From assembly GCA_000004985.1 (NCBI GenBank), contig GG738894.1: a stretch of 64,000 nt of DNA. One strand, given 5' to 3'. Positions 9,468-63,611 of the stretch are shown piece after piece; position 1 is the first letter of the stretch; every line of letters begins with the position of its first letter. Both the position numbers and the translations under genes were made by a program. Origin of the DNA: Naegleria gruberi. Taxonomy: Eukaryota. Below the pieces are notes generated by a model that had not been told where the DNA came from, did no database searches, and worked only from the letters and a program-made list of their open reading frames with translations.

Positions 9468-10039
9468 GGAAAGGGTGAGTGGGTGGTTATTGTTGATCAT
9501 CACAAATATTATAATTTGTCTGGTTGAGTAGTTGTTGTTGATTTGTTTTTTTTGATTTTGAAAATTGTGTGATGTGGAGAATTCCCAATTAAAAACCCAA
9601 ATTTTTGTTTTCCAGATCAAAAGAACGAGAATATTTGTTTCTCTCAACAAATCTCAAAAGAGGCAATGAGAACAAAACCATTTTACAGTACCAATTACAT
9701 TCAGTAGAATATTTGGATAATCACAATTGATCTCAACAAGGGATATTCATCTAATAATCGGTAGTGTTAGCCCAATTTGTTCCCCATTGATTGGCGAGTG
9801 TTTTCTTCTCCACATACTTTTTATCATCAATTGATTAACCCCCTCTTTGTATTGTTCCTCCTCTTCGGAAGAATGATATCAACATGTATTACTCTAGAGA
9901 ATCATATTAAGTGTTATTGTGATTTCTTAAGGGATTTTTTTTTCTTCTAAACAACATACCTCATCCTTTTGGATGAAGAATATGAGTAGGCTTTTGTCTA
10001 TTAGGTGACAATTATCAACGGTGTTTTATAGTTCCATAT

Positions 10040-27497: not shown

Positions 27498-29369
27498 CTA
27501 AACGTGGCATCCAAAGTATTGACACTCCATTCTATAATCAAATAAATCTTGGGAAAAAACAAGATAAAATCCATTCGATTTGATTGCTTCCTTTTGAATT
27601 TCCTTGTCGTTTTGGAATTCTTCATCTACTTTTTTCAAAACTGTACCATTTAATCCAACAGCAAGCTTTACGCACTCTATTGAATCCATCATACTTTGTG
27701 GTAAAAGTGAATATTTGAATCCTTTTTTAAGGAGCTTCATTAGAAACTCCTCGTCATCATAATAGTCAGATTCTATAATGAAGGATATATCACTATAATT
27801 GTTGGGATTGAAAAATTCGAGGACAAAATCTCTATCATCCGTAAACATTTCAGGTAGCAAGCCAATATCTAGCTCTGCATTTTTCTTTGCTTGTATTATA
27901 AAGTCTCTATCCGTTTTAAGAAGATCATCTGCATAACGTATCATACTTCCATCAGATTTCAGTGCTGCCATTACAACTTCCTTATCAGATTTGAAAGTGT
28001 CTGCCAATTTGATAATTTTGCCAGTGATTGCCAAGCATTTGAATAGGAATTCTCTATCATCCATCAATAATCTAATAGGGATATATCGGTAGATAGATGT
28101 ATTAAATTTCAATGCTTCTAAAATAAAGTCTTTATCGTTTCTCAACCGACTTGTCACAAATTGGAAAGCATTATCTGTTATTGTTATGCATTTTAACATG
28201 TAATCAGAATTGTCTCTGAGCTCCTCACAATCATAAAACTTGTCATGGAGATAGTTTCTTCCTGATACATGCTCATTTTGTAGAATTTGTTGTACGGCTT
28301 CAATCATGAACTCTCTATCATTCAACAATTTAGGAGAAATATATTGTATTAAATCAATGTCAAAAAGTAGAGACTTGATAGCTAACTCCTTATCATCGTT
28401 AATATTATTCAATTGATTCTTCATTTTTTCTTTCATTTCATTAAGGATTTCATGTCTTGTTAATGTACCATTCCTGTAAAGCTTAATAGATGTCGGATTA
28501 AATGCAACAATATCCATAATGAAATTCTTGTCAGTACGTAACTCCTCAGGTACCAAGACCATAGCAAACGGTGTTAGCTTGGCCAATTCGAGGATAAACT
28601 GTCGATCTGATTTCAATTTGCTTCCCACACAAACACATGCCTCAATAGTAAACTTGAATTTCTTGAATAGATTAATCATAAATTTGTAATCATTCCTTAA
28701 ACGTTCAGAAACCCTCATAAAGTCCACCACTCTCACTGTGCCATCACTTGTAATATTCTGAAGAACATGCTCTTCATCATCCAATAATTCTTCCTCAGAG
28801 AAACAAATCCTATTCATAAAATCTGGTAATTCAAATCCATCCACTTCACACGAGCAGTCCTCATCCTGGTTACGGGTACATGTTAACATATTCGATACAG
28901 TTTCCATACTTTTGGCTAGAATGAGCAAACTAGGTTGTTTCGATTCATCTGATAATTTAATAATCCTGTCCATTATTTCAAATAAGAACATTGGCTTTCT
29001 AAGAATTGGATGCAAATTATTGAATAAATCCTCACTCAATTTCAACTTTCCCGAATTCAATGTATGAATAATAAATTCAGCATCCTTACAAAATTCAATC
29101 GGAATGTACTTTAAAGGATTTTTCATACATTCATATCGATATTCAAACCACTTAATTTTCCCCTTTGTTTGCATTTGAAATTTGTTATAAAGTAATTGTT
29201 GATAATCAACAACATGACAATGATCAGCATCATCACATCTTGTATAAAAATCATTCAATAATAATATTACATTCTCGGAACGATCATCATGATTTACGTG
29301 TTCGGAATTAAAATTGGCAATTTTACTTGCTGGAAAATCAAAGGATTTGTGATCGGCTTTTCTTTTCAT
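27498..29369 (-). CDS. DUF4116-like tandem-repeat protein (623 aa)
   Basis: Repeats: DKNFIMDIVAFNPTSIKLY, DREFMIEAVQQILQNEHV, DKDFILEALKFNTSIYRYIP, DKEVVMAALKSDGSMIRYADDLLKTDRDFIIQAKKN, DKEIQKEAIKSNGFYLVF. Confidence 0.6.
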   Translation of the reverse strand: MKRKADHKSFDFPASKIANFNSEHVNHDDRSENVILLLNDFYTRCDDADHCHVVDYQQLLYNKFQMQTKGKIKWFEYRYECMKNPLKYIPIEFCKDAEFIIHTLNSGKLKLSEDLFNNLHPILRKPMFLFEIMDRIIKLSDESKQPSLLILAKSMETVSNMLTCTRNQDEDCSCEVDGFELPDFMNRICFSEEELLDDEEHVLQNITSDGTVRVVDFMRVSERLRNDYKFMINLFKKFKFTIEACVCVGSKLKSDRQFILELAKLTPFAMVLVPEELRTDKNFIMDIVAFNPTSIKLYRNGTLTRHEILNEMKEKMKNQLNNINDDKELAIKSLLFDIDLIQYISPKLLNDREFMIEAVQQILQNEHVSGRNYLHDKFYDCEELRDNSDYMLKCITITDNAFQFVTSRLRNDKDFILEALKFNTSIYRYIPIRLLMDDREFLFKCLAITGKIIKLADTFKSDKEVVMAALKSDGSMIRYADDLLKTDRDFIIQAKKNAELDIGLLPEMFTDDRDFVLEFFNPNNYSDISFIIESDYYDDEEFLMKLLKKGFKYSLLPQSMMDSIECVKLAVGLNGTVLKKVDEEFQNDKEIQKEAIKSNGFYLVFSQDLFDYRMECQYFGCHV

Positions 29370-32521: not shown

Positions 32522-33406
32522 ATGCTATCACAACAAACTAAACACTTTGCTAAGAGATCCTCTAGTGCCATCTTAGCCTATCAACAATTACTCAACAATT
32601 CCTTTAAACTTTCCCATACAGCTCAAACAGTTTCCAATAAATGGGATCATCAACCTTCGGATAAACCAATGTTTACAAAGGACATGGTTCTAGATCATTA
32701 CAAGGCACACATTCCTCTTGCCCAAACTAAATTCCGTGGCTATGGAACAGATGGAATCCACACAAATGTTGAAGAATTAGAAAAATTCGAAGTCAAACGA
32801 TCATACAAACCAGTTGACTTGACTGATAAGACAGCTCTTGCAATTATGAAGTTTTTGAGAGTTTTCGTCCATGGATTCTTTGGAAATCGTTACATTCACC
32901 ATGCAGTTGTCTTGGAAACAGTCGCAGCAGTTCCTGGTATCGTTGCAGGTGGCTGGAGACATTTCAGTTCATTGAGATTGATGAGAAGAGATCATGGACA
33001 TATTGGAGAATTAATGGAAGAAGCTGAGAATGAAAGAATGCACTTGTTAACATGGATGGAAATGACAAAACCAACCTTCCTGGAAAGATTACTGGTTGTG
33101 GGAGCTCAAGTTGCCTTTACTTCATTTTACACTGGTGCCTATTTTGTAAATCCAAGATTTTGTCATCGTTTGGTTGGATATTTGGAAGAGGAAGCAGTGG
33201 GTGCCTATACTGAATTTTTGAATGCTATTGATAATGGAGACATTCCAAATTGTAAAGCTCCAGAAATTGCATTGAAATATTGGAATTTGAAACCAGATGC
33301 AACAATGAGAGATGTTGTATTGGTAATTAGAGGTGATGAATGTATGCACAGAGATTACAATCATGACATGTCTGATAAACATAGAGCAGGAGTTGAAGGT
33401 CAATAA
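32522..33406 (+). CDS. AOX: Mitochondrial alternative oxidase (AOX, di-iron ubiquinol oxidase)
   Basis: Basic/Ser-rich presequence MLSQQTKHFAKRSSSAIL. Di-iron carboxylate motifs are present: AVVLETVAAVPG (LET), ENERMHLLTW (E..H), LEEEAVGAY, RGDECMHRDYNH (E..H). Single 294-aa ORF. Confidence 0.9.
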   Translation: MLSQQTKHFAKRSSSAILAYQQLLNNSFKLSHTAQTVSNKWDHQPSDKPMFTKDMVLDHYKAHIPLAQTKFRGYGTDGIHTNVEELEKFEVKRSYKPVDLTDKTALAIMKFLRVFVHGFFGNRYIHHAVVLETVAAVPGIVAGGWRHFSSLRLMRRDHGHIGELMEEAENERMHLLTWMEMTKPTFLERLLVVGAQVAFTSFYTGAYFVNPRFCHRLVGYLEEEAVGAYTEFLNAIDNGDIPNCKAPEIALKYWNLKPDATMRDVVLVIRGDECMHRDYNHDMSDKHRAGVEGQ

Positions 33407-33431: not shown

Positions 33432-35348
33432 TCATTTCCAAAATCTTTTAATAATAAACTCCATAATTTCTCTATCAAAATAAAACTTCTCTGGTAAACG
33501 TGATAAATCTAATGAATTCTTAATTGCTACCATTACTATTTCTCTACAATATTTTAATTGTTTTGCGTACTGAAGTGCATTACCATTTTGTTGAACTGCC
33601 TCCATTACAATAGAGAAAGTATTAAGCAATTTCTTGTTAGCATGGACGAGTGCCATACCATTTTCTTTTACTGCTTCTTGAACTATTTCTCTATCTTTTC
33701 TTAAACTGTGTGAAACAAACGCCAAAGTACTACCATTCAATTTGACAGCTAATAGTGCTATTTCTCTATCATTTTTTAGCAAATTCTTCGACGCATATCT
33801 AAGAGATTCCGGAGAATTTTTGATTGCAGCACTTACCACTTCTCTATTATTTTTCACCTCTTCGGATGCATATTGAAGGGCAAGTCCATTTTGGTTGACT
33901 GCTTTCATTACAATATCAAAATCGTTTCTCAATTCTTCACTGGCGAATCTAAGTGCACATCCGTCTTTACTGATAGCAGGTATAATTACTTCTCTATCAT
34001 TTTGCAATATTTTTGATATGATTTTCAGTGCATTGCTATTTTGTTGAACAGCAATCATTGCAATTTCCTTATCATTTTTGAAGAACTCATTAAGTGCAAT
34101 ACCACAATTTTTCACAGCTAAAATTGCAAATTCTCGATCTTTCTGTAATTCATTTGATACATAGATAAAAGCTGCTCCATTCTTCGTTACAGTTTCTCTT
34201 ACAATATCTCTATTGTTTTTCAATTCATCAGATGCATATTGAATGGCATAACTATTTTGTCTGACAGCTGCCATTACAACGTTGTAATCATTTTTCAATT
34301 TATCTGAAGCATACTGGAGTGCATATCCATCTTGCATGACAGCTGTTAGAACTATTTCTTTGTCATTTTTTAATTGCTCTGAACAGTGAGTTAGCATAGA
34401 TCCACTCCTCTTAACTGCTTCTAAAATTATTTCTCTATCGTTTTTCAATGCTATATAACCTAACATATTTGGATTATTCTGAATGGATTTCATAACTATT
34501 TCTCTATCATTTTTAAATTCATGGGAAAACGGAATGTTTTTACAATACGGAATTGAGAAAAGAATTAGTTCTCTATCATTTTGTAATTCTTTAGATGCAA
34601 ACCGCAATGTAATAGGAAAGGTCATCATTGCTTGTTTAACAATTTCTCTGTCGTTTTTAAAATCAGAATTAAGGGATATGATTTCTGAGCCATTATTCAT
34701 AACTACTTGCATGGCCATTTCTCTATCATTTTCAAATTGTGGAAAGTCATGTAATTTCATTCCATATGTTTTTATAATATTCAGAACAATGGCTCTATTT
34801 TGTTTCATTCTTATAGGTATTGAATGAATATCAAGTAGACGTTTATCAATGCTCTTCATGACAAATAATTCATTACTCCATAACTTTAATGCTTTCAATA
34901 TTAGACGAATAGGACGATATTCAATTTTTAATAAATTCAAAACAGTTTCAAATACATAAAATCCATCACGTTTTAGATCAATTCCAGAATGGAGAAAATC
35001 AATATCATCCTCATCATCCGAATGTTCATATTCCTCTTCCTCCTCCTCCTCATTATCATCACTATCATCCTCATTATCATCCATTCTACTAATATTCCGA
35101 ATCTTGTACCATCTTTTCATAAACTCTAAAAGATATGGTGCAAATATCGTTTCGAATTTATCTTTAACGTCTGCAATTTTCTTCATTAATAATTTGGATT
35201 CAAATGACAAATCCAAGTAAACTTGCACCTGTTCTGATGATTGGAGGAATTTACCTTTCTTAATGTGATTGGACATGAGGAAGTGATCATTTAGATGATT
35301 TCTCTTCATTTTTTTTAATATTGTAAAGATGTTTAATAAACATTTCAT
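33432..35348 (-). CDS. DUF4116-like tandem-repeat protein (about 15 repeats) with acidic D/E-rich N-terminal region
   Basis: Repeats: NDREIVMKSIQNNPNMLGYIALKNDREIILEAVKRSGSMLTHCSEQLKNDKEIVLTAVMQDGYALQYASDKLKNDYNVVMAAVRQNSYAIQYASDELKNNRDIVRETVTKNGAAFIYVSNELQKDREFAILAV.... Start is ATG at complement(35348) (MKCLLNIF) or at complement(35308) (MKRNHL). The track ORF to 35501 has no upstream ATG. Confidence 0.6.
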   Translation of the reverse strand: MKCLLNIFTILKKMKRNHLNDHFLMSNHIKKGKFLQSSEQVQVYLDLSFESKLLMKKIADVKDKFETIFAPYLLEFMKRWYKIRNISRMDDNEDDSDDNEEEEEEEYEHSDDEDDIDFLHSGIDLKRDGFYVFETVLNLLKIEYRPIRLILKALKLWSNELFVMKSIDKRLLDIHSIPIRMKQNRAIVLNIIKTYGMKLHDFPQFENDREMAMQVVMNNGSEIISLNSDFKNDREIVKQAMMTFPITLRFASKELQNDRELILFSIPYCKNIPFSHEFKNDREIVMKSIQNNPNMLGYIALKNDREIILEAVKRSGSMLTHCSEQLKNDKEIVLTAVMQDGYALQYASDKLKNDYNVVMAAVRQNSYAIQYASDELKNNRDIVRETVTKNGAAFIYVSNELQKDREFAILAVKNCGIALNEFFKNDKEIAMIAVQQNSNALKIISKILQNDREVIIPAISKDGCALRFASEELRNDFDIVMKAVNQNGLALQYASEEVKNNREVVSAAIKNSPESLRYASKNLLKNDREIALLAVKLNGSTLAFVSHSLRKDREIVQEAVKENGMALVHANKKLLNTFSIVMEAVQQNGNALQYAKQLKYCREIVMVAIKNSLDLSRLPEKFYFDREIMEFIIKRFWK

Positions 35349-35358
35349 ATTATAAAAA

Positions 35359-35832
35359 ATGCCTCCACGTAAAAGCACCCGATCTTCAGCATCATCGTCT
35401 TCATCTTCTACGGGGAACACTACCAAGAAACAAACCAAACTTATTCCGCCACCACAACCTCCATCATCAATGTTTTTACCACCTCCACAACCGAGACTCA
35501 TTCATCATCAAAATAATTCATCTCTTGGACCAACTCCATCACCTGTTCCGACACGTGGAGATCCATTATTAGCTTTGGCTGGTATTGCTGATAATGAACT
35601 GAGTGATTTAATGTATGAAGAAGTCACTGAAATGATTCTACAAAAAACAAAAGGAAAATCAAATGTGGAACAAGCAGCCTTTATGAGACAATTATTGGAA
35701 GGAACAGATTTTAAAAAAGATTTTGAGAGAAGGATGGAACGCAAATTTCCAGTGTTGGATAATATTTTGAATGGAAAAATTAAATTAGAAAAGAAGCAAG
35801 ACTTGGTGGAAATGGAAATTATTGATGATTAA
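35359..35832 (+). CDS. Small Ser/Pro-rich hypothetical protein (157 aa)
   Basis: ATG at 35359 (aaaaaATGcct). S/P-rich N-terminal half, charged helical C-terminal half. Confidence 0.4.
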   Translation: MPPRKSTRSSASSSSSSTGNTTKKQTKLIPPPQPPSSMFLPPPQPRLIHHQNNSSLGPTPSPVPTRGDPLLALAGIADNELSDLMYEEVTEMILQKTKGKSNVEQAAFMRQLLEGTDFKKDFERRMERKFPVLDNILNGKIKLEKKQDLVEMEIIDD

Positions 35833-43644: not shown

Positions 43645-44235
43645 NNNNNNNNNNNNNNNNNNNNNNNNNNNNNNNNNNNNNNNNNNNNNNNNNNNNNNNN
43701 NNNNNNNNNNNNNNNNNNNNNNNNNNNNNNNNNNNNNNNNNNNNNNNNNNNNNNNNNNNNNNNNNNNNNNNNNNNNNNNNNNNNNNNNNNNNNNNNNNNN
43801 NNNNNNNNNNNNNNNNNNNNNNNNNNNNNNNNNNNNNNNNNNNNNNNNNNNNNNNNNNNNNNNNNNNNNNNNNNNNNNNNNNNNNNNNNNNNNNNNNNNN
43901 NNNNNNNNNNNNNNNNNNNNNNNNNNNNNNNNNNNNNNNNNNNNNNNNNNNNNNNNNNNNNNNNNNNNNNNNNNNNNNNNNNNNNNNNNNNNNNNNNNNN
44001 NNNNNNNNNNNNNNNNNNNNNNNNNNNNNNNNNNNNNNNNNNNNNNNNNNNNNNNNNNNNNNNNNNNNNNNNNNNNNNNNNNNNNNNNNNNNNNNNNNNN
44101 NNNNNNNNNNNNNNNNNNNNNNNNNNNNNNNNNNNNNNNNNNNNNNNNNNNNNNNNNNNNNNNNNNNNNNNNNNNNNNNNNNNNNNNNNNNNNNNNNNNN
44201 NNNNNNNNNNNNNNNNNNNNNNNNNNNNNNNNNNN
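43645..44235. other. Assembly gap (591 N)
   Basis: Run of N. Confidence 0.99.
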
Positions 44236-44467: not shown

Positions 44468-44854
44468 TTAGTGAAACAACAAGATAATGAATAAACAGGT
44501 AGAAATGGATTGTTGTCCATCTATCATGTTGTTTTTATTGTTTAAATAATATATTGAAGGAAGAAGAAGCCTTAGGAGGCAAATAAACTCCTTTTTTTTG
44601 GTGTTGAATTTCTTTCTAACTACTGGTGATATTGGAATAGAAACCACACCAACATGCATACCAAACTCAATACTTGTAAACACTCTTTCTTCTTGCAATT
44701 TACGCAAGATACTTTTTATGCTATGGTTCCACTTCTCAGCAATACCATTAGCCTGGGGTCTTCCTGACGGGACATATTTCCATGAACATCCAGTAGCTTT
44801 AACAAAATCATCAATAATTTTGCTTTTGAACTCACCACCATTATCCGTGAGCAA
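44468..44854 (-). mobile_element. Remnant of a DDE (rve-type) integrase core, from an LTR-retrotransposon or other integrase-bearing element; 5'-truncated
   Basis: LTDNGGEFKSKIIDDFVKATGCSWKYVPSGRPQANGIAEKWNHSIKSIL matches the distal half of the retroviral-type integrase catalytic core (second D in DNGxEF; catalytic E in ANGxxE). An upstream in-frame stop at about 44862 and the neighbouring gene end at 44930 show it is a fragment. Confidence 0.6.
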
Positions 44855-44929: not shown

Positions 44930-46045
44930 TTAAGGAGCACTGCTTGTTGGTGGTGGGATATTTGTGAATAAATGAATTGAACTAACTAAGAGGGAGGTAA
45001 ACCACATGGCTGAATCAATATTGGTTCGATATTTGGAGCTCACTTCAATGTAGTAGGATCCCTCAAATAAAAGTTGCTGTATGAGTACACGTTCGACTTC
45101 TTGTCGTGTGACAGAGTTGGAATCTCTCAAATCTGATTTTAATCCAATAACGACAACTTCTGCATACTTTTTTCTGTTATCTCTGTAAGCTAATAATCCC
45201 TGAATGATAGAATCAAATGATGACCTATTTGTAATATCAAAAGTAATGAATATAGCACTCAGAGGATCAAATAATTGAGGACAATAGTAAAATATCTTAT
45301 CATTCCATTCCCAAATTTGACTCTTCACACGAAACATTTCACCAAAATTCAAAAACTTTGTTTTGAAAGAATGTTCCTCATATGGAGGATTATCACTAAA
45401 GGGCACTTCAGAGAATGAATTCAAGAAATTAGTTTTTCCAGTTTTTTGTTTTCCCAAAATCAAAGCCTTATGTGTAAAGAGATTCTTCTCATACTTTGGG
45501 TTCTTCTTCTTACTTATTCTTATTGATTGAACTGTTGGATCATTACATTCAAGGCCCAATATCTCACTTCTTTGATACTTGGCTTGAGAAATCAACGTGA
45601 AAGGAATATTAAATTTTGAAAAGTACAATTTCAATAACTGAGAATATTCCAAATAATCTCTACTATCCAATTTGAAAATTCCCTTCTCACTAGCATCATG
45701 TTTCCGCATCACTTGTTGAGCCAAATTAAATACAAAATTTCTCATCATGTAACGAAGACAATTTCTTCCCAGCCTCTTTCCGAACAAATCATCAAAAGAA
45801 TTAACCTGTTCATTCGCATCATCATGAATACAATCATAAAGCCAACACTCCTTCATGTGATGAGAAATTAACGGCCAAGCAAAAGTGTTCCTCCACTCCG
45901 AACAAACAAATCCAATGGAAAGTACAATTTCAATCATATCTAGGAATGAAAAACATTCCTTGATTATTTCCAATGGTAATTCACGATAGAGAGGAGAGAG
46001 AAAATTTGCTTTCGTGGATTCGGAACCTGTGCCATCATCCTCCAT
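44930..46045 (-). CDS. F-box protein fused to a Rab/Ras-like small GTPase domain with degenerate G3/G4 motifs (predicted pseudo-GTPase)
   Basis: ATG at complement(46045). F-box: LPLEIIKECFSFLDMIEIVLSIGFVCSEWRNTFAWPL. GTPase fold: KALILGKQKTGKTNF (G1, GxxxxGKT); KSQIWEWNDKIFYY in place of IWDTAGQE (DxxGQ lost); SAIFITFDITNRSSF (switch II region conserved); VVVIGLKSDL in place of GNKxDL; EVSSKY (G5 SAK-like). Confidence 0.65.
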   Translation of the reverse strand: MEDDGTGSESTKANFLSPLYRELPLEIIKECFSFLDMIEIVLSIGFVCSEWRNTFAWPLISHHMKECWLYDCIHDDANEQVNSFDDLFGKRLGRNCLRYMMRNFVFNLAQQVMRKHDASEKGIFKLDSRDYLEYSQLLKLYFSKFNIPFTLISQAKYQRSEILGLECNDPTVQSIRISKKKNPKYEKNLFTHKALILGKQKTGKTNFLNSFSEVPFSDNPPYEEHSFKTKFLNFGEMFRVKSQIWEWNDKIFYYCPQLFDPLSAIFITFDITNRSSFDSIIQGLLAYRDNRKKYAEVVVIGLKSDLRDSNSVTRQEVERVLIQQLLFEGSYYIEVSSKYRTNIDSAMWFTSLLVSSIHLFTNIPPPTSSAP

Positions 46046-46157: not shown

Positions 46158-49100
46158 TTAATGGTTGAGATTGGATTGTTTCAAAAGATCATTCTTTGAT
46201 TTGAGAATAGAGTCAAAGGATGAATATTCTGAGGTGAGAACTAATCTTGAATAGGTATCTTGTAAATTCATAACTACTTCATTCTTTAGAGTGTCGATAC
46301 ATTCATTGATTCTTGTATTGAGTGGTGATTTGCTTTTTTCATTGGAAAGTTCAACATCTTTCGAATCGAATTCTTTGACTATTGAAACCAAGTTGTTTCT
46401 TAAATGTGATGGAATGTTCACTTCATTCACACTTCCAACTTTGATATAGTTATCAAATAATTTGGAAAAGAATGAATTTAGCTCTTTGATTCTTCCATTT
46501 TGTAAAACATTTTCATTTTGTTTCAGAAAAGAGAAGAGGTGAATATTTTCTAATGAAAATTCCTTCTTACAAAACCATTCCATCAATGAATAGCCCTCCT
46601 TATTGTCCATAAATGAAACCAATTCAGAAAATTCTTCATTGGAATCTTTTGATTTTCTTATTTTGGAAATAAGCAACACTAATAAGGAATAACCTCCAAA
46701 CACAAAACAATAACTTGCTAAATATAAAATTTCAAACGCCATTGAAATAGAATCATTAGCAATAACTCTCTTTGGTGATGAAATTCCTGATAATCCAATA
46801 ATTTGATTACAAGCAAGGAAAATAAAACAAAAAACAAATAAAATCATTTCAACTCTAAAGTAAAGTGGTGAATCAACTCTTGAATACCAATTTGTGATGT
46901 GATTTGCTGGTAATTTGATAAAATTTGTCTTTTTCTTCTTATCCATATTTGTAATATTTGCAATAATTTCTTCCTTTTTGAGAAGAAACGATATTGTATA
47001 ATCCATAATAATTAACCCAATAATTACCAAACAAATTGATAGAATGATACAAGTAAATGAAATGGATACTATATAGGTATACTCTGTGCCAGTAATTACT
47101 TTCGTTCTCACTAAAATACACCACAAAGTCCAATACATTATGTTTACAATGAAACTGGAACCTAAAATCAATAACATTGATTTTGTGGAGAGGAAATGTT
47201 TCACAATCAAGAGCAATTTCTCACCTTCCTTACTATTTGACTTGGAGAAGACGGCCAATTTGTGATAGAAATATTTCAATAACTCAAATCTTGAAATTTG
47301 ATACAAATATGAAATAAAAGCCATTATCGTGATTGAATTTACAATAATTGTAATGATATTTGACAAGATATTGACTGCTAAATCACCATATTCCCATGAA
47401 ACTGTACTCGATTGTGAGCTATTTACTTCAACTTGTCCTGAAAGCAAAACACTCTTCTGAACAATCAATAACAATGCAGTTTGAATTAAAAGTGCAGTAA
47501 TTCCAATAAATGGAGTGACGAATCGACTCTTCACTGGTTGATAATTTCTGAAAACAATCAACAAGGTCAATAAAACACAGGAAATGATGAAGAAAATACT
47601 TCCATATACGATTTGAGTGACATAGACACTTTCCAACTCTTTTGCCTGTGCTGAGCTTGATCTTGTTGTGTTATATTCAACAAATGCAGAGAATAAGGTG
47701 GTGTGGTTGCATTGACATTGTACAATAGTTGAGCTTTCTGAAACAAGTTCACATCCATTGGATTCCCATGATTCTGTTGTTTCATTCCAATATTTACATG
47801 AAATGGAATAGTTTAAACTTGTATTCAAAGTAGCTGTAATTGACAATGAGAGGGTGAATGGTTTAGTCAAGTCTTTGATTTCTAATTGAGATCCTTCTTT
47901 GAAAATTGAAAATTCTGCAAATGATGAAAGGGAATTTGCCATTGAATAATTGTCTGGTCTGATATTTTTGGAATATTTGATTAAAGACATGCCTAATTGT
48001 TTCGAATAACCATTATAAGTATTCAACACGTTATCAACATCAACCTTAACATCTTGTAAATCAAAACTTCCAGAAAGAGTTTTTTCACTTTTGATAAAGT
48101 TTGATGTAACAATTTCCACATTATTAGAACGGAATAGCCTGTTAGAAATGGAATTCTTATTCGAATCAGAAAGGATAACTGGTGGCTCACCAATAATTGC
48201 CATTATTGAAACATGATTATAAATAGTGGACACATTGTAGTTTCCAGTGTTGAATAGATTAGTAGCTGTCGTAAGAATGTTTGATAAATCAGTTGAGGAA
48301 ACAACTTTTTCCTTGACAAAACCAAATGAATTGTACTGATTCTTATACGAATCTGTTAAATTGGCACAGAATGACTCAAATTTGAGCGCAACTTCTAAAC
48401 TTGCCTCCAAATTTGATTGAGCAATCTTTTTAAGTGTGTCAATTGTAGAAGATGGATTTTGAAGTGGAATTTCCAAAGACTTGACAATTTCTATTGCAAG
48501 AGAACTATCTGAAACTGTTTCAGTAAATACAGAATCGTAAGGAGCAATCATAGCAAGGATGGAATCTGATTTTAATCTTTCCAATAAATAGAGCTTGGAA
48601 TCAGGATAGGGATACATTGAAATATCTCCATTTACAACTTGATGGTATTCGAAACCTTGGGAGTCCTTCATGAACACAAGCATTGTAATGTTAGTAGTAA
48701 AGTAAGGAAGATAAATAGAATCAATAAGCCCAACATTATCATAATATTGAGTGACTCTAACGTTGGTCTTTTCTTTGTATTGGAAACCAAGTGCATAATT
48801 GAATGGATACATCTTCGAATTGGCTGCTATCCAAGGATAAACACTAAATCTAACAAGAGTTTTGAGCGAGTAAACTAAAGATGAATTTGTGCCAATAATT
48901 GAGAAAGTATTTCCACTTGGTAAAGGACCTGAATAAATTGGAATTGTCTCCTCTAAGCTAAATGAATTATTATTTCCCCTAAAACTTGAGCTAGTAAGTA
49001 CAAACTTGAAAGTTAAAGAATCATCATAAGTAGAAAATGATCCAGAAAATGATATTATTGGGTTAAATTTGATGGTATTGTTTCCATCAAACTCAACAGT

Positions 49101-50765
49101 GGTGATCCCACTACTTTCTAATAATGTAGAATTTCCACTCAACTTCAAGCTGTAACTAACTGTGAATGAACAATTTGTTTGGCAATCTATCACCTTGGAA
49201 CTATTGAAAATATTCTCAGCTCCCAAAACAAGACTATTCAAACTATGGTCCTTGTTCTTGATGAAATAAGAAGGGAACCCATATTTGGTAATACCTGGTT
49301 CTTGGATAGTGACTGTGAAATATAGAGTATTAGAAACTCTTGCTGGATATTGAGAGTGAGTTTTGAAACCTTGAACCGAAAACAAATAAGCTGTTCTCAC
49401 CTTCATCAAATCTTTGAAATATGTCAAGTTGAATAATGGTTGACTTGAAGAGCTAGGACAATCAATGCAAACCCAATTCACAGTAAAAGTTTGGAATTCA
49501 GAGGTGATTAAGGATTGATTATTCATATCAAAGGCATCAAGCTGTAAAATCAGATTATCGCCCTTCTCCACTTGAAAACTATTTGAGGGTAATGAGATTA
49601 GAATAGGATTAGTGTTGATAGAACAGTTGTTGCCATAGAAACCGCTGTTACAAGTACAGTTATCAGGTAGATTACATTGCCCATTGCCTGAGCAAACACT
49701 TGTCGAATTAAAGAGAACTCCATTACAGAAATAGTCTTGACAAGCTTTGCCGTAGAACCCTGTCTTACAATTACACGAATCTGGGCCAGAACAATTTCCA
49801 TTTCCAGAACAGACATTGGTACCATTACTATTAATACCAAAGCACTTGTAATATTGACAATTATTTCCATAATATCCCTCGGAACATGTGCAATTGTTTA
49901 AGGAAGAACAGTTTCCTCTTGCTAAGCATACTTGAGAATTATTATACGAAAGTCCAGAACAAGTATGAATACTACAATCATAGCCAAGAAAACCTTGCGA
50001 GCATGTGCAATTGTTTGGAGAAGAACAATTACCATTGCCTGAACAAACCATTGAATCATTCTTCAACTTGCCAAAACAATTAACAAAACTTTCACATTCA
50101 TTTCCATACCATCCATCATTACAAACACAATTATTATACGAAACACATTTACCATGATAGCTACAAGCATCAGTGGCATTCTTCTTGTAACAAATTGGTT
50201 GATCACAATTGTTTCCATTGTACATTACTGGACCAGTTTTACCAGCAGGGAAAATATCCTGTCTCCAACAAACTAATCCATAAGAATCATAAATAATCAA
50301 ATTCTTATCCGTGGTCATGATAAATCTGAAAGGCCCAACACCACCACTACATGATGACAAAATGGTTGAGTAGACATTTGTTGGATTATGAAGAGTAAAC
50401 GCTCCAGTATTATTATTCAATCTCATATTGTAAGAACCAGATCCCTGCCACGTGTTAGATGCCCAATCAGCAGCACCATTCAATTGGTAGGTTACCAAGT
50501 TACCATCAGTTTGAAGAACAACAAATTCATCGCTCTGTGGATTGTATATTGCCACACCATTTTGAATAGTTCCATTGATGGACGAGTGCATATAGTTTCC
50601 AGACGAAAGATCGAGACATTCACAAGAATTTTGACCTTTACAGATACCATTACCTCCACAAACTTGTAAATCGGTTGGGTGTTTGCCAAAACATGTAAAC
50701 GCTGTTGAGTAATCTACTCCAAGATGGAGCACAATTAATAACAACACAACAAGGTAAAATTTCAT
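46158..50765 (-). CDS. Adhesion-GPCR-like receptor: signal peptide, bulb-type (GNA-like) lectin domain, 6 EGF-like repeats, large ectodomain, GPS-like motif, 7 TM helices, C-terminal RGS domain
   Basis: ATG at complement(50765): MKFYLVVLLLIVLHLGV. B-lectin motif QxDxNxVxY in VVLQTDGNLVTYQLNG (second, degenerate: TTDKNLIIY). EGF-like repeats: CSGNGNCSSPNNCTCSQGFLGYDC, CLARGNCSSLNNCTCSEGYYGNNC, CSGNGNCSGPDSCNCKTGFYGKAC, CSGNGQCNLPDNCTCNSGFYGNNC and others. GPS-like motif CELVSESSTIVQCQCNHTTLFSAF (about 47681..47716) lies just before TM1 (IFFIISCVLLTLLIVF). Seven hydrophobic helices follow. RGS domain: FMDNKEGYSLMEWFCKKEFSLENIHLFSFLKQN (about 46300..46600). Confidence 0.75.
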   Translation of the reverse strand: MKFYLVVLLLIVLHLGVDYSTAFTCFGKHPTDLQVCGGNGICKGQNSCECLDLSSGNYMHSSINGTIQNGVAIYNPQSDEFVVLQTDGNLVTYQLNGAADWASNTWQGSGSYNMRLNNNTGAFTLHNPTNVYSTILSSCSGGVGPFRFIMTTDKNLIIYDSYGLVCWRQDIFPAGKTGPVMYNGNNCDQPICYKKNATDACSYHGKCVSYNNCVCNDGWYGNECESFVNCFGKLKNDSMVCSGNGNCSSPNNCTCSQGFLGYDCSIHTCSGLSYNNSQVCLARGNCSSLNNCTCSEGYYGNNCQYYKCFGINSNGTNVCSGNGNCSGPDSCNCKTGFYGKACQDYFCNGVLFNSTSVCSGNGQCNLPDNCTCNSGFYGNNCSINTNPILISLPSNSFQVEKGDNLILQLDAFDMNNQSLITSEFQTFTVNWVCIDCPSSSSQPLFNLTYFKDLMKVRTAYLFSVQGFKTHSQYPARVSNTLYFTVTIQEPGITKYGFPSYFIKNKDHSLNSLVLGAENIFNSSKVIDCQTNCSFTVSYSLKLSGNSTLLESSGITTVEFDGNNTIKFNPIISFSGSFSTYDDSLTFKFVLTSSSFRGNNNSFSLEETIPIYSGPLPSGNTFSIIGTNSSLVYSLKTLVRFSVYPWIAANSKMYPFNYALGFQYKEKTNVRVTQYYDNVGLIDSIYLPYFTTNITMLVFMKDSQGFEYHQVVNGDISMYPYPDSKLYLLERLKSDSILAMIAPYDSVFTETVSDSSLAIEIVKSLEIPLQNPSSTIDTLKKIAQSNLEASLEVALKFESFCANLTDSYKNQYNSFGFVKEKVVSSTDLSNILTTATNLFNTGNYNVSTIYNHVSIMAIIGEPPVILSDSNKNSISNRLFRSNNVEIVTSNFIKSEKTLSGSFDLQDVKVDVDNVLNTYNGYSKQLGMSLIKYSKNIRPDNYSMANSLSSFAEFSIFKEGSQLEIKDLTKPFTLSLSITATLNTSLNYSISCKYWNETTESWESNGCELVSESSTIVQCQCNHTTLFSAFVEYNTTRSSSAQAKELESVYVTQIVYGSIFFIISCVLLTLLIVFRNYQPVKSRFVTPFIGITALLIQTALLLIVQKSVLLSGQVEVNSSQSSTVSWEYGDLAVNILSNIITIIVNSITIMAFISYLYQISRFELLKYFYHKLAVFSKSNSKEGEKLLLIVKHFLSTKSMLLILGSSFIVNIMYWTLWCILVRTKVITGTEYTYIVSISFTCIILSICLVIIGLIIMDYTISFLLKKEEIIANITNMDKKKKTNFIKLPANHITNWYSRVDSPLYFRVEMILFVFCFIFLACNQIIGLSGISSPKRVIANDSISMAFEILYLASYCFVFGGYSLLVLLISKIRKSKDSNEEFSELVSFMDNKEGYSLMEWFCKKEFSLENIHLFSFLKQNENVLQNGRIKELNSFFSKLFDNYIKVGSVNEVNIPSHLRNNLVSIVKEFDSKDVELSNEKSKSPLNTRINECIDTLKNEVVMNLQDTYSRLVLTSEYSSFDSILKSKNDLLKQSNLNH

Positions 50766-51008
50766 ATTTTTTTTTGATACTGACAACCTGTCAAACAGAG
50801 CCAACTGTATGAGAGGTTACGCCATTGTATTATTATTCATTTGTATTAAATGACCTTTTTTGAGTTTAACTTACTTAAAAATCAATTTACACCAAGTGTC
50901 ATTCAATATGTAATTGGTTGAATACTTGTTTTAAATATCAAACAAAGCTGTTTGGATGAAGCATTTGTAATGTGGAAAGGAAGAAAATCATTATAACATA
51001 GAAACGAA

Positions 51009-60576: not shown

Positions 60577-60683
60577 ATTCCATTTTCCTTGACCGTGGTT
60601 TCATTAGAATGCTCAAAAGGTCCGATCACGTTTAACGTGAAAAAGACAGCAGATGATCAAAATACATGATACAATCTAAAAAA

Positions 60684-60895
60684 ATGGGCAACACGTCAAG
60701 TATTATTAGATTCTCTGAAGAAATCAGTCCACCCAGTGATGAGATTGAAGAGGCAGAGGCAAAACCTCTTCGAGAATGTAGCAATAGGGACTTGTTTTGT
60801 TTATGTATTCATTACAATTTCAAGAACGATACTGTCATAAATGCTGTAACAATGAACAATGATTTTTATGGAAAGTTATTCGAAAGGTTGGTANN
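60684..60895 (+). CDS. 5' end of a paralog of the 58748 gene (N-myristoylated), truncated at the assembly gap/retroelement
   Basis: MGNTSSIIRFSEE...KPLRECSNRDLFCLCIHYNFKNDTVINAVTMNNDFYGKL aligns ungapped to KPLHKLTNLELVVLCKHYKFESEKVKQALEKNAKFNGADYDKL of the upstream gene (16/43 identical, same spacing of L, C, HY, F). Confidence 0.45.
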
Positions 60896-61503
60896 NNNNN
60901 NNNNNNNNNNNNNNNNNNNNNNNNNNNNNNNNNNNNNNNNNNNNNNNNNNNNNNNNNNNNNNNNNNNNNNNNNNNNNNNNNNNNNNNNNNNNNNNNNNNN
61001 NNNNNNNNNNNNNNNNNNNNNNNNNNNNNNNNNNNNNNNNNNNNNNNNNNNNNNNNNNNNNNNNNNNNNNNNNNNNNNNNNNNNNNNNNNNNNNNNNNNN
61101 NNNNNNNNNNNNNNNNNNNNNNNNNNNNNNNNNNNNNNNNNNNNNNNNNNNNNNNNNNNNNNNNNNNNNNNNNNNNNNNNNNNNNNNNNNNNNNNNNNNN
61201 NNNNNNNNNNNNNNNNNNNNNNNNNNNNNNNNNNNNNNNNNNNNNNNNNNNNNNNNNNNNNNNNNNNNNNNNNNNNNNNNNNNNNNNNNNNNNNNNNNNN
61301 NNNNNNNNNNNNNNNNNNNNNNNNNNNNNNNNNNNNNNNNNNNNNNNNNNNNNNNNNNNNNNNNNNNNNNNNNNNNNNNNNNNNNNNNNNNNNNNNNNNN
61401 NNNNNNNNNNNNNNNNNNNNNNNNNNNNNNNNNNNNNNNNNNNNNNNNNNNNNNNNNNNNNNNNNNNNNNNNNNNNNNNNNNNNNNNNNNNNNNNNNNNN
61501 NNN
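60896..61503. other. Assembly gap (608 N)
   Basis: Run of N. Confidence 0.99.
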
Positions 61504-63611
61504 TTACGAAAAGTAAATGGAGGAATAGATTCGAAACATTCAAAAATGGAAACTTTGCAAAAAGTTTCAAAGTTCATTCGGCAAGATTTTTGGGCAACCA
61601 AAATAGATTTAAAGAAAGGTTATTTTCAAATTCCAATCAAAGAAGAAGATCAGAAGCTATTAGGCTTCTCATTTCAAGGAAAGAAATACAAGTTCCAATG
61701 TCTTCCATTTGGCTTAAACTCGGCACCAAGGTACTTCACAAAAATCATGAAAGAATTAATGAAGAAATGGAGAGAGAAAGGGCTGATCGTATTCATATAC
61801 ATCGACGACATTTTAATTTTGGGATCCAATATAGTAGAAACAAAGACAGCAACAGAACAAGTGTTAAAAGATTTAGAATTCTTGGGTTGGCTGGTTCAGT
61901 TAGAAAAATCCCAACTAATCCCCTCACAACAAGTATGCTTTTTAGGGATAGATTTCAATTTGGAAAAAGGAACAATGCTGATTCCTCACGAAAAGAAAGA
62001 AGTTGCACTCAACTTTATTCAAGATTTTCTCCAAGCTGGAAAATTTCGAAAATTCGTTCGAATCAAACTGGTAGCTCAATTTATAGGAAAACTGGAATTC
62101 GCCTCATTAGCAGAACAATACATAATGCCTCTGTTAGACAGATTACGAAAGCAAATGAATCAAAGGGTTTCAGTAGTAGGATGGTCAGGTTTTATGCTCA
62201 TCAACAGAGGCCCCATGAAGGACCTAATGAGATTAAAGTCCATCATTTCAAACTCAAAAGGTTCTCTCCTAGATCTAAATCAACCTTTCCCAATTATAGT
62301 CAATTCAGATGCTTCTCCTCAAGGATATGGCGTCCACTCCTCAAACACTGTTATCATAGGAAGATTTCACACCAACGATCATATCAATTCGAAAGAAATG
62401 ATGGCAATTCTTCAATTCTTCATAGAAGCAAAATCACAAAAGCTCTTCCCAAGAGGAGCCTATTTCGAGATAAGGGGGGACAATTCAACTGCCCTCTCAT
62501 ACATAAGAAAAGGATATGGAACTTTCGAACACCTCGCTCAAATAGCAAGAAAAATTTGGAAAATTCTAATAGAATGTGGCTGGAGAATTGCAAAAGTAAT
62601 TTACATTCCCTCAGAGAAAAATTCAATCGCAGACAAATTAAGCCGTTTAAGCGATTGGAAATCATCACCAGAATTGATAAGTATGGTAGAAAAAGAATTC
62701 GGAAACCACACCATAGACAGATTTGCAACATCAGAGTCAGCAACAACGATCCAATTCAACTCTTGGTTAGAAAACGATGCGTTTCAAGAACTTTGGGAAC
62801 AAAATTCAATCAATTATTGTGTTCCTCCAATAGGTCTAATCCCACAAGCTCTATTTCACTTGATCCGATCAAAGGCCATAGGAACATTCGTAGTTCCTTA
62901 TTGGCCAACAGCTTACTGGTTCCCGATCTTGCTAAAGATATCTTTAGAACAGAGAAGTGTTCCGCTCCAATGGCTTATAACAGAGCATTACAACGAACTG
63001 CACAAACTATCAGACAATCTTTCGTTCATGGCAGTCAAAGTGAATGGAATGCTCTACTTTCAATGAGATGTCAGGCTTTGTCTACTGCTCTTGCAGAATC
63101 CACGGTCAAAAAGTATTCCTCAACTTATTCAGAATTTTCTTATTTCTGTCTACTCCATAATTTAGACAAATCAGATTTTAGAGCCCCGGAATTATTCGCT
63201 TGCTATCTTGCAGTTCACAAAAAGCTCTACAGATTGAATAATTTGAAACCTACGTTGGATTTCTATTCAAATTTGGAAGGATGGTCCGTAAATTATTCTA
63301 ATCAATTCTCTAGAATCAAACAAGGTTTGAATAAGTTTTATTCACGAGCCGATATTGTTAAACGTAAGAGAAGTGGAATCTCTGCTCTCAATGTCAAGCA
63401 ATTCATTGATAGGATCTCTATTAAAGACTCTTATCTTCACATGTTGTCTTGTGCCATACTTTCCGTTGGCATTAGATTATTGGCAAGACCTGGTCAACTG
63501 GCTAATTTATCATGGTCTTGTGTTAAACTTGATACTCCTTTTATCGGTTGGGTTACTTTTGATCTTTCTGGTCACAAAACAGACCAATATCTGACAGATG
63601 AAGATGGCTAG
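61504..63611 (+). mobile_element. DIRS-like (tyrosine-recombinase) retrotransposon, 5' end in gap, 3'-truncated: RT-RNaseH-(MT-like) ORF 61504..63066 plus overlapping ORF ending in the YR N-terminal region (about 63058..63611)
   Basis: RT motifs: LPFGLNSAPRYFTKIM; KGLIVFIYIDDILILG (YXDD). RNase H: IVNSDASPQGYGV ... SIADKLSR. Downstream DIRS-type domain: NYCVPPIGLIPQ...VVPYWPTAYWF. A second frame stays open across the whole RT region and ends with a YR-like box I (CAILSVGIRLLARPGQLANLSWSCV) before stopping at 63611. Long overlapping ORFs are the DIRS1-type arrangement. No integrase or protease motifs. Confidence 0.7.

Follow-up and report, generated by a model that had tools for sequence, protein, structure and literature searches.

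We estimate, at a probability of about one half, that the Naegleria gruberi protein XP_002672998.1 would be an adaptor of an SCF ubiquitin ligase in which a Rab-derived pseudoGTPase domain acts as a constitutive, nucleotide-independent binding module. The gene lies in the window, by which we mean the whole 64,000-nucleotide stretch of contig GG738894.1 that was analysed, and its product consists of an F-box, a conserved helical linker, a spacer and a G domain whose switch regions are degenerate (Table 1). Both the architecture and this exact gene were already catalogued in 2021, in the supplement to a published study (PMC8296547), and it is the broken-switch detail alone that is new.

Table 1. 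Features of the XP_002672998.1 gene and protein, with positions in the window.
Feature	Residues	Position	Strand	Remarks
Complete intronless coding sequence		44930..46045	-	371 aa plus stop; identical to XP_002672998.1 (D2VST8)
F-box	22-58 (core LPLEIIKECFSFLDMIEIVLSIGFVCSEWRN, 23-53)	45872..45982	-	Pfam PF00646
Family-specific helical linker	80-146	45608..45808	-	GRNCLRYMMRNFVFNLAQQV (93-112) and LKLYFSKF (138-145)
Poorly conserved spacer, probably disordered	147-188	45482..45607	-	Low pLDDT, low identity
Rab-derived G domain	189-361	44963..45479	-	Pfam Ras, PDB sequence matches, AlphaFold2 and Foldseek
G1 / P-loop, GKQKTGKT	198-205	45431..45454	-	Intact, fits GxxxxGK[ST]
Degenerate switch I / G2, PPYEEHSF	220-227	45365..45388	-	Conserved Thr and RabF1 gone
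Degenerate G3 / switch II, WEWNDKI	245-251	45293..45313	-	DxxGQ lost
G4, LKSD	302-305	45131..45142	-	Asn replaced; base-contacting Lys and Asp retained
G5, SSK	336-338	45032..45040	-	Intact; most paralogs have TNT

Gene and domain architecture

The open reading frame runs without interruption from ATG to TAA, and its 371-residue product matches NCBI XP_002672998.1 / EFC40254.1 and UniProt D2VST8, which carries the database title 'rab family member [Naegleria gruberi]', with 100% identity from end to end. An origin from bacteria or viruses and a mis-assembled chimera were considered and ruled out, since the contiguous ORF equals the RefSeq model and since a near-identical environmental allele (L001) was independently recovered on a metagenome contig. 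The two copies differ at six positions, four synonymous and two non-synonymous with none inside the G domain, and under neutral expectation at least four synonymous changes among six would occur with P = 0.016; this is suggestive of purifying constraint on the gene, although with n=6 differences the pair is underpowered for dN/dS. The pair formed with N. fowleri, at about 35% amino acid identity, is saturated for the same measure.

As the first-pass annotation had it, an F-box is followed by a small-GTPase domain, and both scored above the Pfam cut-offs, PF00646 over residues 22-58 (26.9 bits versus 20.5, E=4e-6) and PF00071 (Ras) over residues 193-347 (49 bits versus 21.6, E=7e-13). The HMM alignment, which had been named as the check that could reveal the lack of a GTPase fold, thus returned a GTPase. 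The same domain matched 216 solved small GTPases in the PDB at E<=1, the best being the second G domain of Entamoeba EhRabX3 (PDB 5c1s, E=1e-13), followed by Rab8A. Structure prediction with AlphaFold2 from the single sequence was unusable (pLDDT 35), and the model used here was instead obtained with an 11-sequence family alignment (pLDDT 69.9, pTM 0.73). It has three helices in the F-box region (pLDDT about 85), long helices in the linker (72-89), a spacer with values below 50 at residues 148-185, and a G domain of six strands and five helices that ends in the family helix MWFTSLLVSSIHLF. When the model was compared with the PDB by Foldseek the top matches were all Rabs, namely Rab12 (2il1, TM 0.81), Rab1b and Rab8a, with E about 1e-11 and TM values of 0.75-0.81 that are normalised to the target. 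We therefore regard the predicted Ras-superfamily fold downstream of the F-box and linker as confirmed.

The Rab character of the domain is nonetheless much reduced. The motifs RabF1 to RabF5 of Pereira-Leal and Seabra are represented only by KSQIW (F2-like) and ITFDIT (F5-like), while RabF1 (IGVDF) and, downstream of the G3 segment, RabF3 (RFRSIT) and RabF4 (YYRGA) are absent; the paralogs P0004, P0012 and P0050 have retained the full set. No C-terminal prenylation cysteine is present: among the 371 residues the last cysteine stands at 255, and the chain ends in ...IPPPTSSAP. To judge from these family motifs and from the C-terminal Cys, the protein is not a bona fide Rab.

The F-box is of a canonical kind. 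Its hallmark L-P-x-E ... V-C-x-x-W-R is kept throughout the family, with P24, V47, C48 and W51 invariant or almost so. The linker (aa 80-146), which gave no match to any Pfam family, is kept in all 11 full-length relatives with the consensus GRxxxRxLLR ... LKxYFxxF, in which Y141, F142 and F145 are invariant, and the spacer that follows varies across the family in both sequence and length.

The F-box Rab-like family

The fusion had previously been treated as an oddity, a view that we cannot uphold, since the protein is one member of a large Naegleria expansion. Naegleria-specific F-box Rab-like expansions are described in Supplementary Material 4 and Table S8 of Herman et al. 2021 (BMC Biol 19:142, PMC8296547), including a conserved extension at the N-terminus together with an F-box and a Rab-like domain that has diverged, and XP_002672998.1 fits this family (the RabX14 group) by its N-terminal F-box extension, its divergent Rab-like domain and its listing there. 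What the supplement says of the family does not touch on how far the G motifs are kept, on the linker motifs or on the pseudoGTPase status of the RabX14c orthogroup.

Relatives were recovered by an exhaustive phmmer search. A word-indexed protein search with XP_002672998.1 returned the protein itself only, the method being too insensitive for this family, and the same kind of search with an N-terminal family profile gave only P0003 and one Willaertia F-box protein. Family members are about 360-410 aa long, occur in Naegleria, Willaertia and environmental contigs, and share a layout of canonical F-box, conserved helical linker, variable spacer and Rab-derived G domain, the last with a C-terminal helix peculiar to the family and no cysteine for lipidation. 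Full-length relatives are found in N. gruberi (P0010, P0050, P0057), N. fowleri (P0002/P0151, P0004) and N. lovaniensis (P0013), and outside the genus in Willaertia magna (P0145) and environmental contigs; P0145 together with P0159, likewise from Willaertia magna, extends the published description of the family as 'lacking discernible close relatives outside Naegleria' (PMC8296547, supplement).

Among the G domains of the family, Pfam Ras scores range from 42 to 127 bits, with XP_002672998.1 (49) and its probable N. fowleri ortholog (45) among the lowest, and the G3 motif ranges from canonical WDTAGQE over intermediate WDQCGPE to the degenerate form found here. Several relatives have kept both DxxG and the switch-I Thr (WDTAGQE or WDQCGPE).

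State of the nucleotide-binding motifs

The G motifs were read by alignment to H-Ras and Rab8A, in which GKQKTGKT matches the P-loop pattern and SSK falls at G5, both of them intact in this protein as had been claimed. The claim that DTAGQE has been lost from switch II likewise holds, since the aligned residues are (W)E-W-N-D-K, with Asp57 changed to Glu, Gly60 lost and Gln61 changed to Asn, and since the segment carries a two-residue deletion relative to Rabs, whereas paralogs have WDQCGPERFRSIT or WDTAGQERF. The losses furthermore go beyond those first noticed: the switch-I Thr position aligns with Tyr/Glu where paralogs have TIGVDF, and RabF1, RabF3, RabF4 and the C-terminal Cys are gone as well.

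The reported loss of NKxD was on the other hand only partly borne out. The Asn is indeed replaced by Leu, but Lys and Asp are retained, and T or L occupies the Asn position in every aligned relative. Throughout the family G4 takes the form [TL]-[KRM]-x-D, D305 being invariant in one alignment (A1) and both Lys and Asp in another (A3), and Willaertia P0145 has LKSD alongside canonical WDTAGQERF and SSK. Comparing G3 and G4 among relatives, as the first-pass annotation had proposed, thus leaves the G3 loss standing but renders the G4 loss overstated.

The probable N. fowleri ortholog

Table S8 of PMC8296547 pairs XP_002672998.1 with N. fowleri RabX14c in a 1:1 orthology, with the flag 'Rab ... 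F-box'. We infer that the recovered N. fowleri protein P0002/P0151 is RabX14c, on the single ground that it ranks far above every other non-self match. No synteny with the N. fowleri locus was found in the flanks examined, where Arf-like, filamin/C2, RabGAP-TBC and AdoHcyase genes occur, none of which is present in the window neighbourhood, and the orthology call depends on the published table and on the rank of the hit.

The two proteins are about 34-36% identical, and the N. fowleri gene is an intact ORF of 410 codons. Identity is highest in the F-box (54%), followed by 40% in the linker and 17% in the spacer, and within the G domain it amounts to 41% in the C-terminal half and to 28% in the P-loop/switch half, the lowest value of any folded part, although some stretches of the domain are strongly conserved (for instance VTRQEVERVLIQQLLFEGSYYIE versus VKREEVEKVLIQSKLFEGAYYIE). 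The Pfam Ras match of the ortholog covers only profile positions 69-145. Its G1 reads GKKKQGKR, in which Arg stands where the P-loop has its Mg-binding Ser/Thr, and its G5 reads SCH, and the intactness of these two motifs is hence a property of the N. gruberi protein but not of its probable ortholog.

Nucleotide state

With the G2 Thr, the Asp and Gly of DxxG and the catalytic Gln lost and switch II shortened, the domain would be unable to work as a GTP/GDP switch, and the description 'hydrolysis-dead or nucleotide-free' given in the earlier annotation is a fair inference from the G2 Thr, DxxG Asp/Gly and Gln losses. It should also be mentioned that motif loss alone does not prove inactivity, since active hydrolysis has been reported for EhRabX3, which likewise lacks G motifs (PMC8514894). 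PseudoGTPases have been divided into class i, which do not bind nucleotide, and class ii, which bind but do not hydrolyse it (PMC5593906 Table 2). The comparison with N. fowleri makes the nucleotide-free or nucleotide-independent option more likely than the nucleotide-binding one, and as the ortholog lacks both the P-loop Ser/Thr and G5, we judge the module to be nucleotide-independent rather than permanently GTP-loaded. In the proposed mechanism the G domain of the RabX14c orthogroup would thus be class i-like. The N. gruberi protein may still bind guanine nucleotide by way of G1 and G5 and of the Lys and Asp in G4, even if that of N. fowleri does not. The stricter notion that the whole orthogroup has a nucleotide-free pseudoGTPase serving as a constitutive SCF substrate receptor is put forward only tentatively.

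Clearly less probable than the nucleotide-independent adaptor is a pseudoGTPase of class ii, locked like Rnd in a nucleotide-bound state, for which GTP or GDP would be a structural cofactor of an SCF adaptor that is always 'on'. GKQKTGKT, Lys303/Asp305 and SSK are all present in the N. gruberi protein, the coexistence of [TL]KxD with canonical WDTAGQERF in P0145 and P0057 makes this G4 compatible with a normal G domain, and the Rnd proteins, with degraded switch II and permanent GTP binding, are an accepted precedent (PMC5593906 Table 2). It is nonetheless in poor agreement with the absence of Thr35 and Asp57 (H-Ras numbering), which are the Mg2+/gamma-phosphate ligands, and with a switch II that is two residues short, and furthermore the Arg in the P-loop and the SCH at G5 of the probable ortholog indicate that nucleotide binding is seemingly unselected in the orthogroup, in which, among the folded regions, the half with the P-loop and switches is conserved least. 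This reading, in which the domain can neither hydrolyse nor switch, was the option preferred by the first-pass annotation.

Proposed mechanism and function

In the mechanism that we favour, that of a nucleotide-independent adaptor, the F-box and helical linker would dock the protein onto Skp1 of the SCF (Skp1-Cul1-Rbx1) ubiquitin ligase, and the G domain would take the role played by WD40 or LRR domains in ordinary F-box proteins, that is to hold a partner for ubiquitylation. Skp1 and Cul1 are taken as given in Naegleria, as in eukaryotes in general; a literature search on Skp1 in Naegleria gave nothing usable. A part in substrate recognition, which had been assigned to the G domain from the outset, is plausible in view of the layout of the protein and of the facts that the GTPase domain of Rab40 serves as a substrate adaptor in a cullin-RING ligase, Rab40-CRL5 (PMC8129794, PMC10509765), and that pseudoGTPase domains are able to act as pure protein-binding modules (PMC12490416, PMC5593906). 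For the family as such a broadly similar notion, 'GTPase-dependent ubiquitination', has been proposed by those who catalogued it (PMC8296547, supplement), and in switch-competent relatives with WDTAGQE or WDQCGPE the binding of a partner could well be GTP-gated. Since XP_002672998.1 has no prenylation site, it would be a soluble adaptor and not a membrane-anchored Rab.

It is rather improbable that the F-box does not serve substrates at all, but instead mediates auto-ubiquitylation and turnover of the protein or places it in a non-SCF complex with Skp1, so that the real function would be that of the G domain. Non-SCF complexes of Skp1 with F-box proteins reportedly exist, such as that of yeast Rcy1, a Rab-effector F-box protein, and would be a precedent for the latter; for the former, the F-box of trypanosome TbFRP, a FYVE-F-box-GTPase, has been proposed to be coupled to rapid turnover or proteolysis (PMC3593210). 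An F-box followed by a conserved helical linker and a C-terminal globular domain is however the standard layout of a substrate receptor, and the conservation of the linker throughout the family points to a G domain kept at a set position relative to Skp1.

More improbable still is that the gene is a decaying, pseudogene-bound member of a birth-and-death family with a functionless G domain under relaxed selection. In favour of decay, some members of these Rab-like clades are described as carrying disruptive mutations, putative pseudogenes account for two of the five RabX14 paralogs of N. fowleri (PMC8296547, supplement), and the two Pfam Ras scores lie near the bottom of the family range. Against it, the two genes, recorded as 1:1 orthologs (PMC8296547 Table S8), are intact over their 371 and 410 codons, the F-box and linker and parts of the G domain are well conserved between them, the G fold is confidently modelled by AlphaFold2, and the L001 polymorphism is mostly synonymous.

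Significance

If the reading of a nucleotide-free substrate receptor is true, this would be the first pseudoGTPase domain through which a cullin-RING ligase binds its substrate, and the family, from WDTAGQE over WDQCGPE to the degenerate form, would make up a natural series in which a GTP-gated ubiquitin-ligase adaptor becomes ungated. The orthogroup of XP_002672998.1 appears to have given up the nucleotide switch and kept the F-box, which supports a role of the G domain as scaffold or receptor and offers a contrast to the switch-competent paralogs. GTPase-cullin docking fusions of the Rab40 and RhoBTB type couple membrane and cytoskeletal signalling to the local degradation of proteins, and the dozens of F-box GTPase fusions in Naegleria, a genus that includes a lethal human pathogen, suggest that such logic is used there on a large scale. 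The practical value is nonetheless modest, as gene and architecture are published, Naegleria lacks genetic tools and the function is conjectural.

Comparison with known systems

PseudoGTPase binding modules with degraded G motifs are an accepted class (PMC12490416, PMC5593906), and the second G domain of EhRabX3 resembles the present one in that W-G-F-Y-N-K replaces DxxGQE, a likeness that may be convergent. None of EhRabX3, p190RhoGAP pG1/pG2, CENP-M, AAGAB and Rnd is however fused to an F-box. Rab and F-box do occur in one polypeptide in Legionella, whose Rab-domain effectors carry an F-box or U-box (Gomez-Valero et al., bioRxiv 10.1101/350777), but these are bacterial, secreted and presumably built from captured eukaryotic domains, and they are likened here by architecture alone. 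Closer to Naegleria, TbFRP of the Euglenozoa (FYVE-F-box-Ras-like GTPase), also a discoban protein, likewise places its F-box ahead of a Rab-like G domain; its authors did not find a Naegleria ortholog (PMC3593210). We considered P0112 as a TbFRP candidate because of its C-terminal G domain and rejected it, as it is a kinase-Ras fusion.

RhoBTB resembles the family in that it joins an atypical small-GTPase domain to a cullin adaptor domain, but differs in the GTPase family (Rho-like), in the adaptor domain (BTB) and in the cullin (Cul3). The nucleotide behaviour of RhoBTB is atypical. RhoBTB occurs in Naegleria too (PMC8296547, supplement). The best-studied functional analogue of an F-box Rab-like fusion is Rab40. 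It keeps its G motifs and prenylation, has a SOCS box C-terminal to the G domain and recruits ElonginB/C-Cul5 rather than Skp1-Cul1, and its homology to the family is confined to the Rab domain. Like the proteins described here it nevertheless joins a Rab-type G domain to a cullin-RING docking motif, and in Rab40 it is the GTPase domain that selects the targets of ubiquitylation (PMC8129794, PMC10509765).

Gene identity and fold

The ORF encoding the F-box Rab-like protein is uninterrupted, coincides exactly with the coordinates of the first-pass annotation and lies in AT-rich eukaryotic DNA (GC ~0.3 in the window). Its product is 100% identical over the full length to XP_002672998.1 / EFC40254.1 / UniProt D2VST8, which the database names 'rab family member [Naegleria gruberi]' and which is encoded on a 499,907-bp contig. 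Since this RefSeq protein is identical and an allele differing at 6 of 1116 nucleotides is furthermore present on a metagenome contig (L001), we can conclude that the gene is not an assembly artefact. Four of the differences are synonymous and two non-synonymous, with none in the G domain, and this pattern (probability of at least 4 of 6 synonymous under neutrality ~0.016) points weakly to purifying selection.

The protein is an F-box protein by Pfam, and has a Ras-superfamily fold both by sequence and in the predicted structure. A sequence search among solved structures gave 216 small-GTPase matches, headed by the second G domain of Entamoeba EhRabX3 and then Rab8A. The AlphaFold2 model obtained with an 11-sequence family alignment (pLDDT 69.9, pTM 0.73; a single-sequence model of pLDDT only 35 was discarded) has helices in the F-box, long helices in the linker, a disordered spacer and the G domain, and in Foldseek against the PDB it retrieved Rabs almost exclusively, Rab12 (2il1, target-normalised TM 0.81) being followed by Rab1b and Rab8a (E ~1e-11). 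The GTPase fold claimed for this region is thus upheld, and the outcome by which the first-pass annotation would have been refuted, a region of another fold, did not arise.

Features of the query protein, its probable N. fowleri ortholog and the window
Feature	Coordinates	Strand	Details	Ortholog (410-codon model)
Query ORF	window 44930-46045	-	ATG to TAA, 371 aa	L002 8001-9233
F-box (PF00646)	aa 22-58		26.9 bits, cut-off 20.5	
Spacer (AlphaFold2)	aa 148-185		disordered	
G domain (AlphaFold2)	aa 189-361		six strands, five helices	
Ras family (PF00071)	aa 193-347		49 bits, cut-off 21.6	profile positions 69-145 only
G1	aa 198-205		GKQKTGKT, intact	GKKKQGKR, Arg at Mg-binding Ser/Thr position
G2	aa 220-227		PPYEEHSF, without switch-I Thr	
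G3	aa 245-251		W-E-(two-residue gap)-W-N-D-K; Asp57, Gly60, Gln61 all lost	F-T-G-M-N-E
G4	aa 302-305		LKSD, Asn replaced, Lys and Asp kept	TKCD
G5	aa 336-338		SSK, intact	SCH
DUF4116-repeat ORFs (three separate)	window 1037-2191, 27498-29369, 33432-35501	-	up to 12 copies, up to 520 bits	
Second RGS-domain protein	window 3984-5576	-	530 aa	
1098-aa ORF	window 6354-9650	-	cellular RNA-dependent RNA polymerase domain PF05183, 202 bits	
Gap	window 9214-9263		50 N, interrupts the 1098-aa ORF	
Alternative oxidase gene	window 32522-33406	+	PF01786, 263 bits	
Gap	window 43645-44235		591-base N run, just downstream of query gene	
Short ORF	window 44468-44854	-	next to the 591-base N run	
1548-aa ORF	window 46158-50804	-	immediate upstream neighbour of query gene	
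Gap	window 60894-61503		610 N, inside overlapping long ORFs at 60666-63611	

Concerning the neighbours, the 1548-aa ORF carries several repeats of EGF-like/teneurin type and a GPS (GPCR proteolysis site) motif, with an RGS domain at the C-terminus. Hydrophobic segments lie between GPS and RGS in the translation read by eye, and the product resembles an adhesion-GPCR-like receptor with a fused RGS domain of its own. The short ORF (LTDNGGEFKSK...PQANGIAEKWNHSIK) has weak, sub-threshold integrase core matches (rve_3, E=0.006; rve, E=0.04) and is possibly what remains of a retroelement or transposon.

State of the G motifs

The first-pass annotation had G1 and G5 intact and the DTAGQE and NKxD residues replaced, which alignment to H-Ras and Rab8A bears out, although further losses had been overlooked. 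That NKxD is lost was however overstated: the Asn is indeed replaced, but Lys and Asp are kept, and in every family member T or L occupies the Asn position, with the Asp invariant. Since the Willaertia magna member P0145 furthermore has LKSD together with a G1, G3 and G5 that are all fully canonical, LKSD is the normal state of the family and not a loss specific to this protein. In the same alignment RabF1, RabF3 and RabF4 are absent, and there is no prenylation signal, since the last cysteine is residue 255. As judged from these motifs, the protein fails as a genuine Rab on RabF motifs and prenylation and as a working switch on G2 and G3, and because the equivalents of Thr35, Asp57, Gly60 and Gln61 are lost and switch II is shortened, we infer that the G domain cannot be a GTP/GDP switch.

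Family members and the probable N. fowleri ortholog

When 1.84 billion representatives were searched exhaustively with phmmer, 1264 matches were obtained, of which only three had E<=1e-30: besides the query, these were N. fowleri FDP41_001754 (P0002, 36% identity) and P0003, an N-terminal fragment of environmental origin. The query can be aligned over its whole length with some ten more full-length proteins (360-410 aa), from N. gruberi (P0010, P0050, P0057), N. fowleri (P0004), N. lovaniensis (P0013), Willaertia magna (P0145) and environmental contigs. The layout common to all full-length members is an F-box, then a helical linker with GRxxxRxLLR and LKxYFxxF, a spacer that varies, the Rab-like domain and a C-terminal helix (WYxxLxxY) without terminal Cys. 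The G3 states form a gradient, from canonical in P0145 (WDTAGQERF) and P0057 (WDTVGQEKF), through WDQCGPERF in P0004, P0012 and P0050, where Pro replaces the catalytic Gln, to degenerate in the query and its ortholog as well as in P0007 and P0010; with Rabs and the canonical paralogs as reference, parsimony makes the query's losses at G2 and G3 derived. P0057 (XP_002672613.1) is annotated 'ran family small GTPase' and stands under Ran with F-box in Table S8 of Herman et al. (PMC8296547); its end-to-end alignment with the Rab-like family nevertheless takes in both the YFSHF motif of the linker and the WY helix at the C-terminus, and Ran and Rab labels among F-box GTPases may not mean separate origins.

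We equate P0002/P0151 with RabX14c, which is probable since it ranks far above every other non-self match, Table S8 being without an N. fowleri sequence. In the NCBI model FDP41_001754, of 365 aa and with one intron, the protein stops at ...SADFKR, without the family helix; an uninterrupted 410-codon ORF on N. fowleri contig VFQX01000027.1 (L002), identical to P0151, continues ...FVLWYGTLLTYCVYQF, restores the helix and fits the family, and is probably the right model, the deposited one probably being mis-spliced. The ortholog comparison proposed for G3 and G4 finds G3 degenerate here too, but G4 with Lys and Asp kept. Identity between query and ortholog is 54% in the F-box, 40% in the helical linker, 17% in the spacer, 28% in the P-loop/switch half of the G domain and 41% in its C-terminal half, so that conservation is seen at the docking end and at the back of the G domain but not in the nucleotide apparatus.

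Functional implications

The F-box/Rab-like architecture and the gene itself are already known. PMC8296547 lists XP_002672998.1 with an F-box flag and as the partner of N. fowleri RabX14c (Table S8), flags two of five RabX14 paralogs as putative pseudogenes, cautions in the supplement that sequence allows no specific functional prediction, and describes the Naegleria F-box Rab-like clades as without close relatives outside Naegleria; no discussion of the G-motif state of XP_002672998.1 was found there. The family is however also present in Willaertia magna (P0145, KAL9657252; P0159, KAL9643663), by which the published claim is extended. This family presence, the conserved linker motifs, the NKxD correction and the switch-dead state of the RabX14c orthogroup are incremental additions.

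The observation in the first-pass annotation is confirmed, and its interpretation is supported in part. Beyond domain composition, fold, motif states and family membership, which are demonstrated, F-box and linker would attach the protein to the Skp1 subunit of an SCF ligase. Of the two nucleotide states proposed in the first-pass annotation, the nucleotide-bound one seems to us less likely than a nucleotide-independent pseudoGTPase of class i-like type (in the classes of PMC5593906), because the ortholog is also without the G1 Ser/Thr and G5. The N. gruberi protein, in which G1, G5 and the Lys and Asp of G4 are intact, may nevertheless bind nucleotide. The F-box may alternatively serve turnover of the protein itself, as suggested for TbFRP (PMC3593210), or a Skp1 complex other than SCF. 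That the gene is decaying within a birth-and-death family agrees poorly with the polymorphism pattern, with the conservation of the F-box and with an ORF that is intact in both N. gruberi and N. fowleri.

In the SCF model the G domain would be the partner-binding module, by analogy with Rab40-CRL5 and RhoBTB-Cul3. RhoBTB with Cul3 is one case of a GTPase domain on a cullin ligase. Rab40 with CRL5 is the other analogue (PMC8129794, PMC10509765), and pseudoGTPases as binding modules likewise have precedent (PMC12490416). Two eukaryotic sequences from Logan and JGI, P0018 and P0127, carry an F-box and a canonical Rab domain (Ras 127 and 177 bits) and lie outside the family, their N-terminal region being different; the F-box is above the Pfam cut-off in P0018 only, P0127 having two F-box models below it (18.4 and 22.5 bits), and if both hold, the combination would have arisen more than once. 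Euglenozoan FRP is likewise a fusion of F-box and Rab domain but adds a FYVE domain, and its authors found no Naegleria ortholog (PMC3593210). Legionella effectors also have fusions of Rab domain and F-box.
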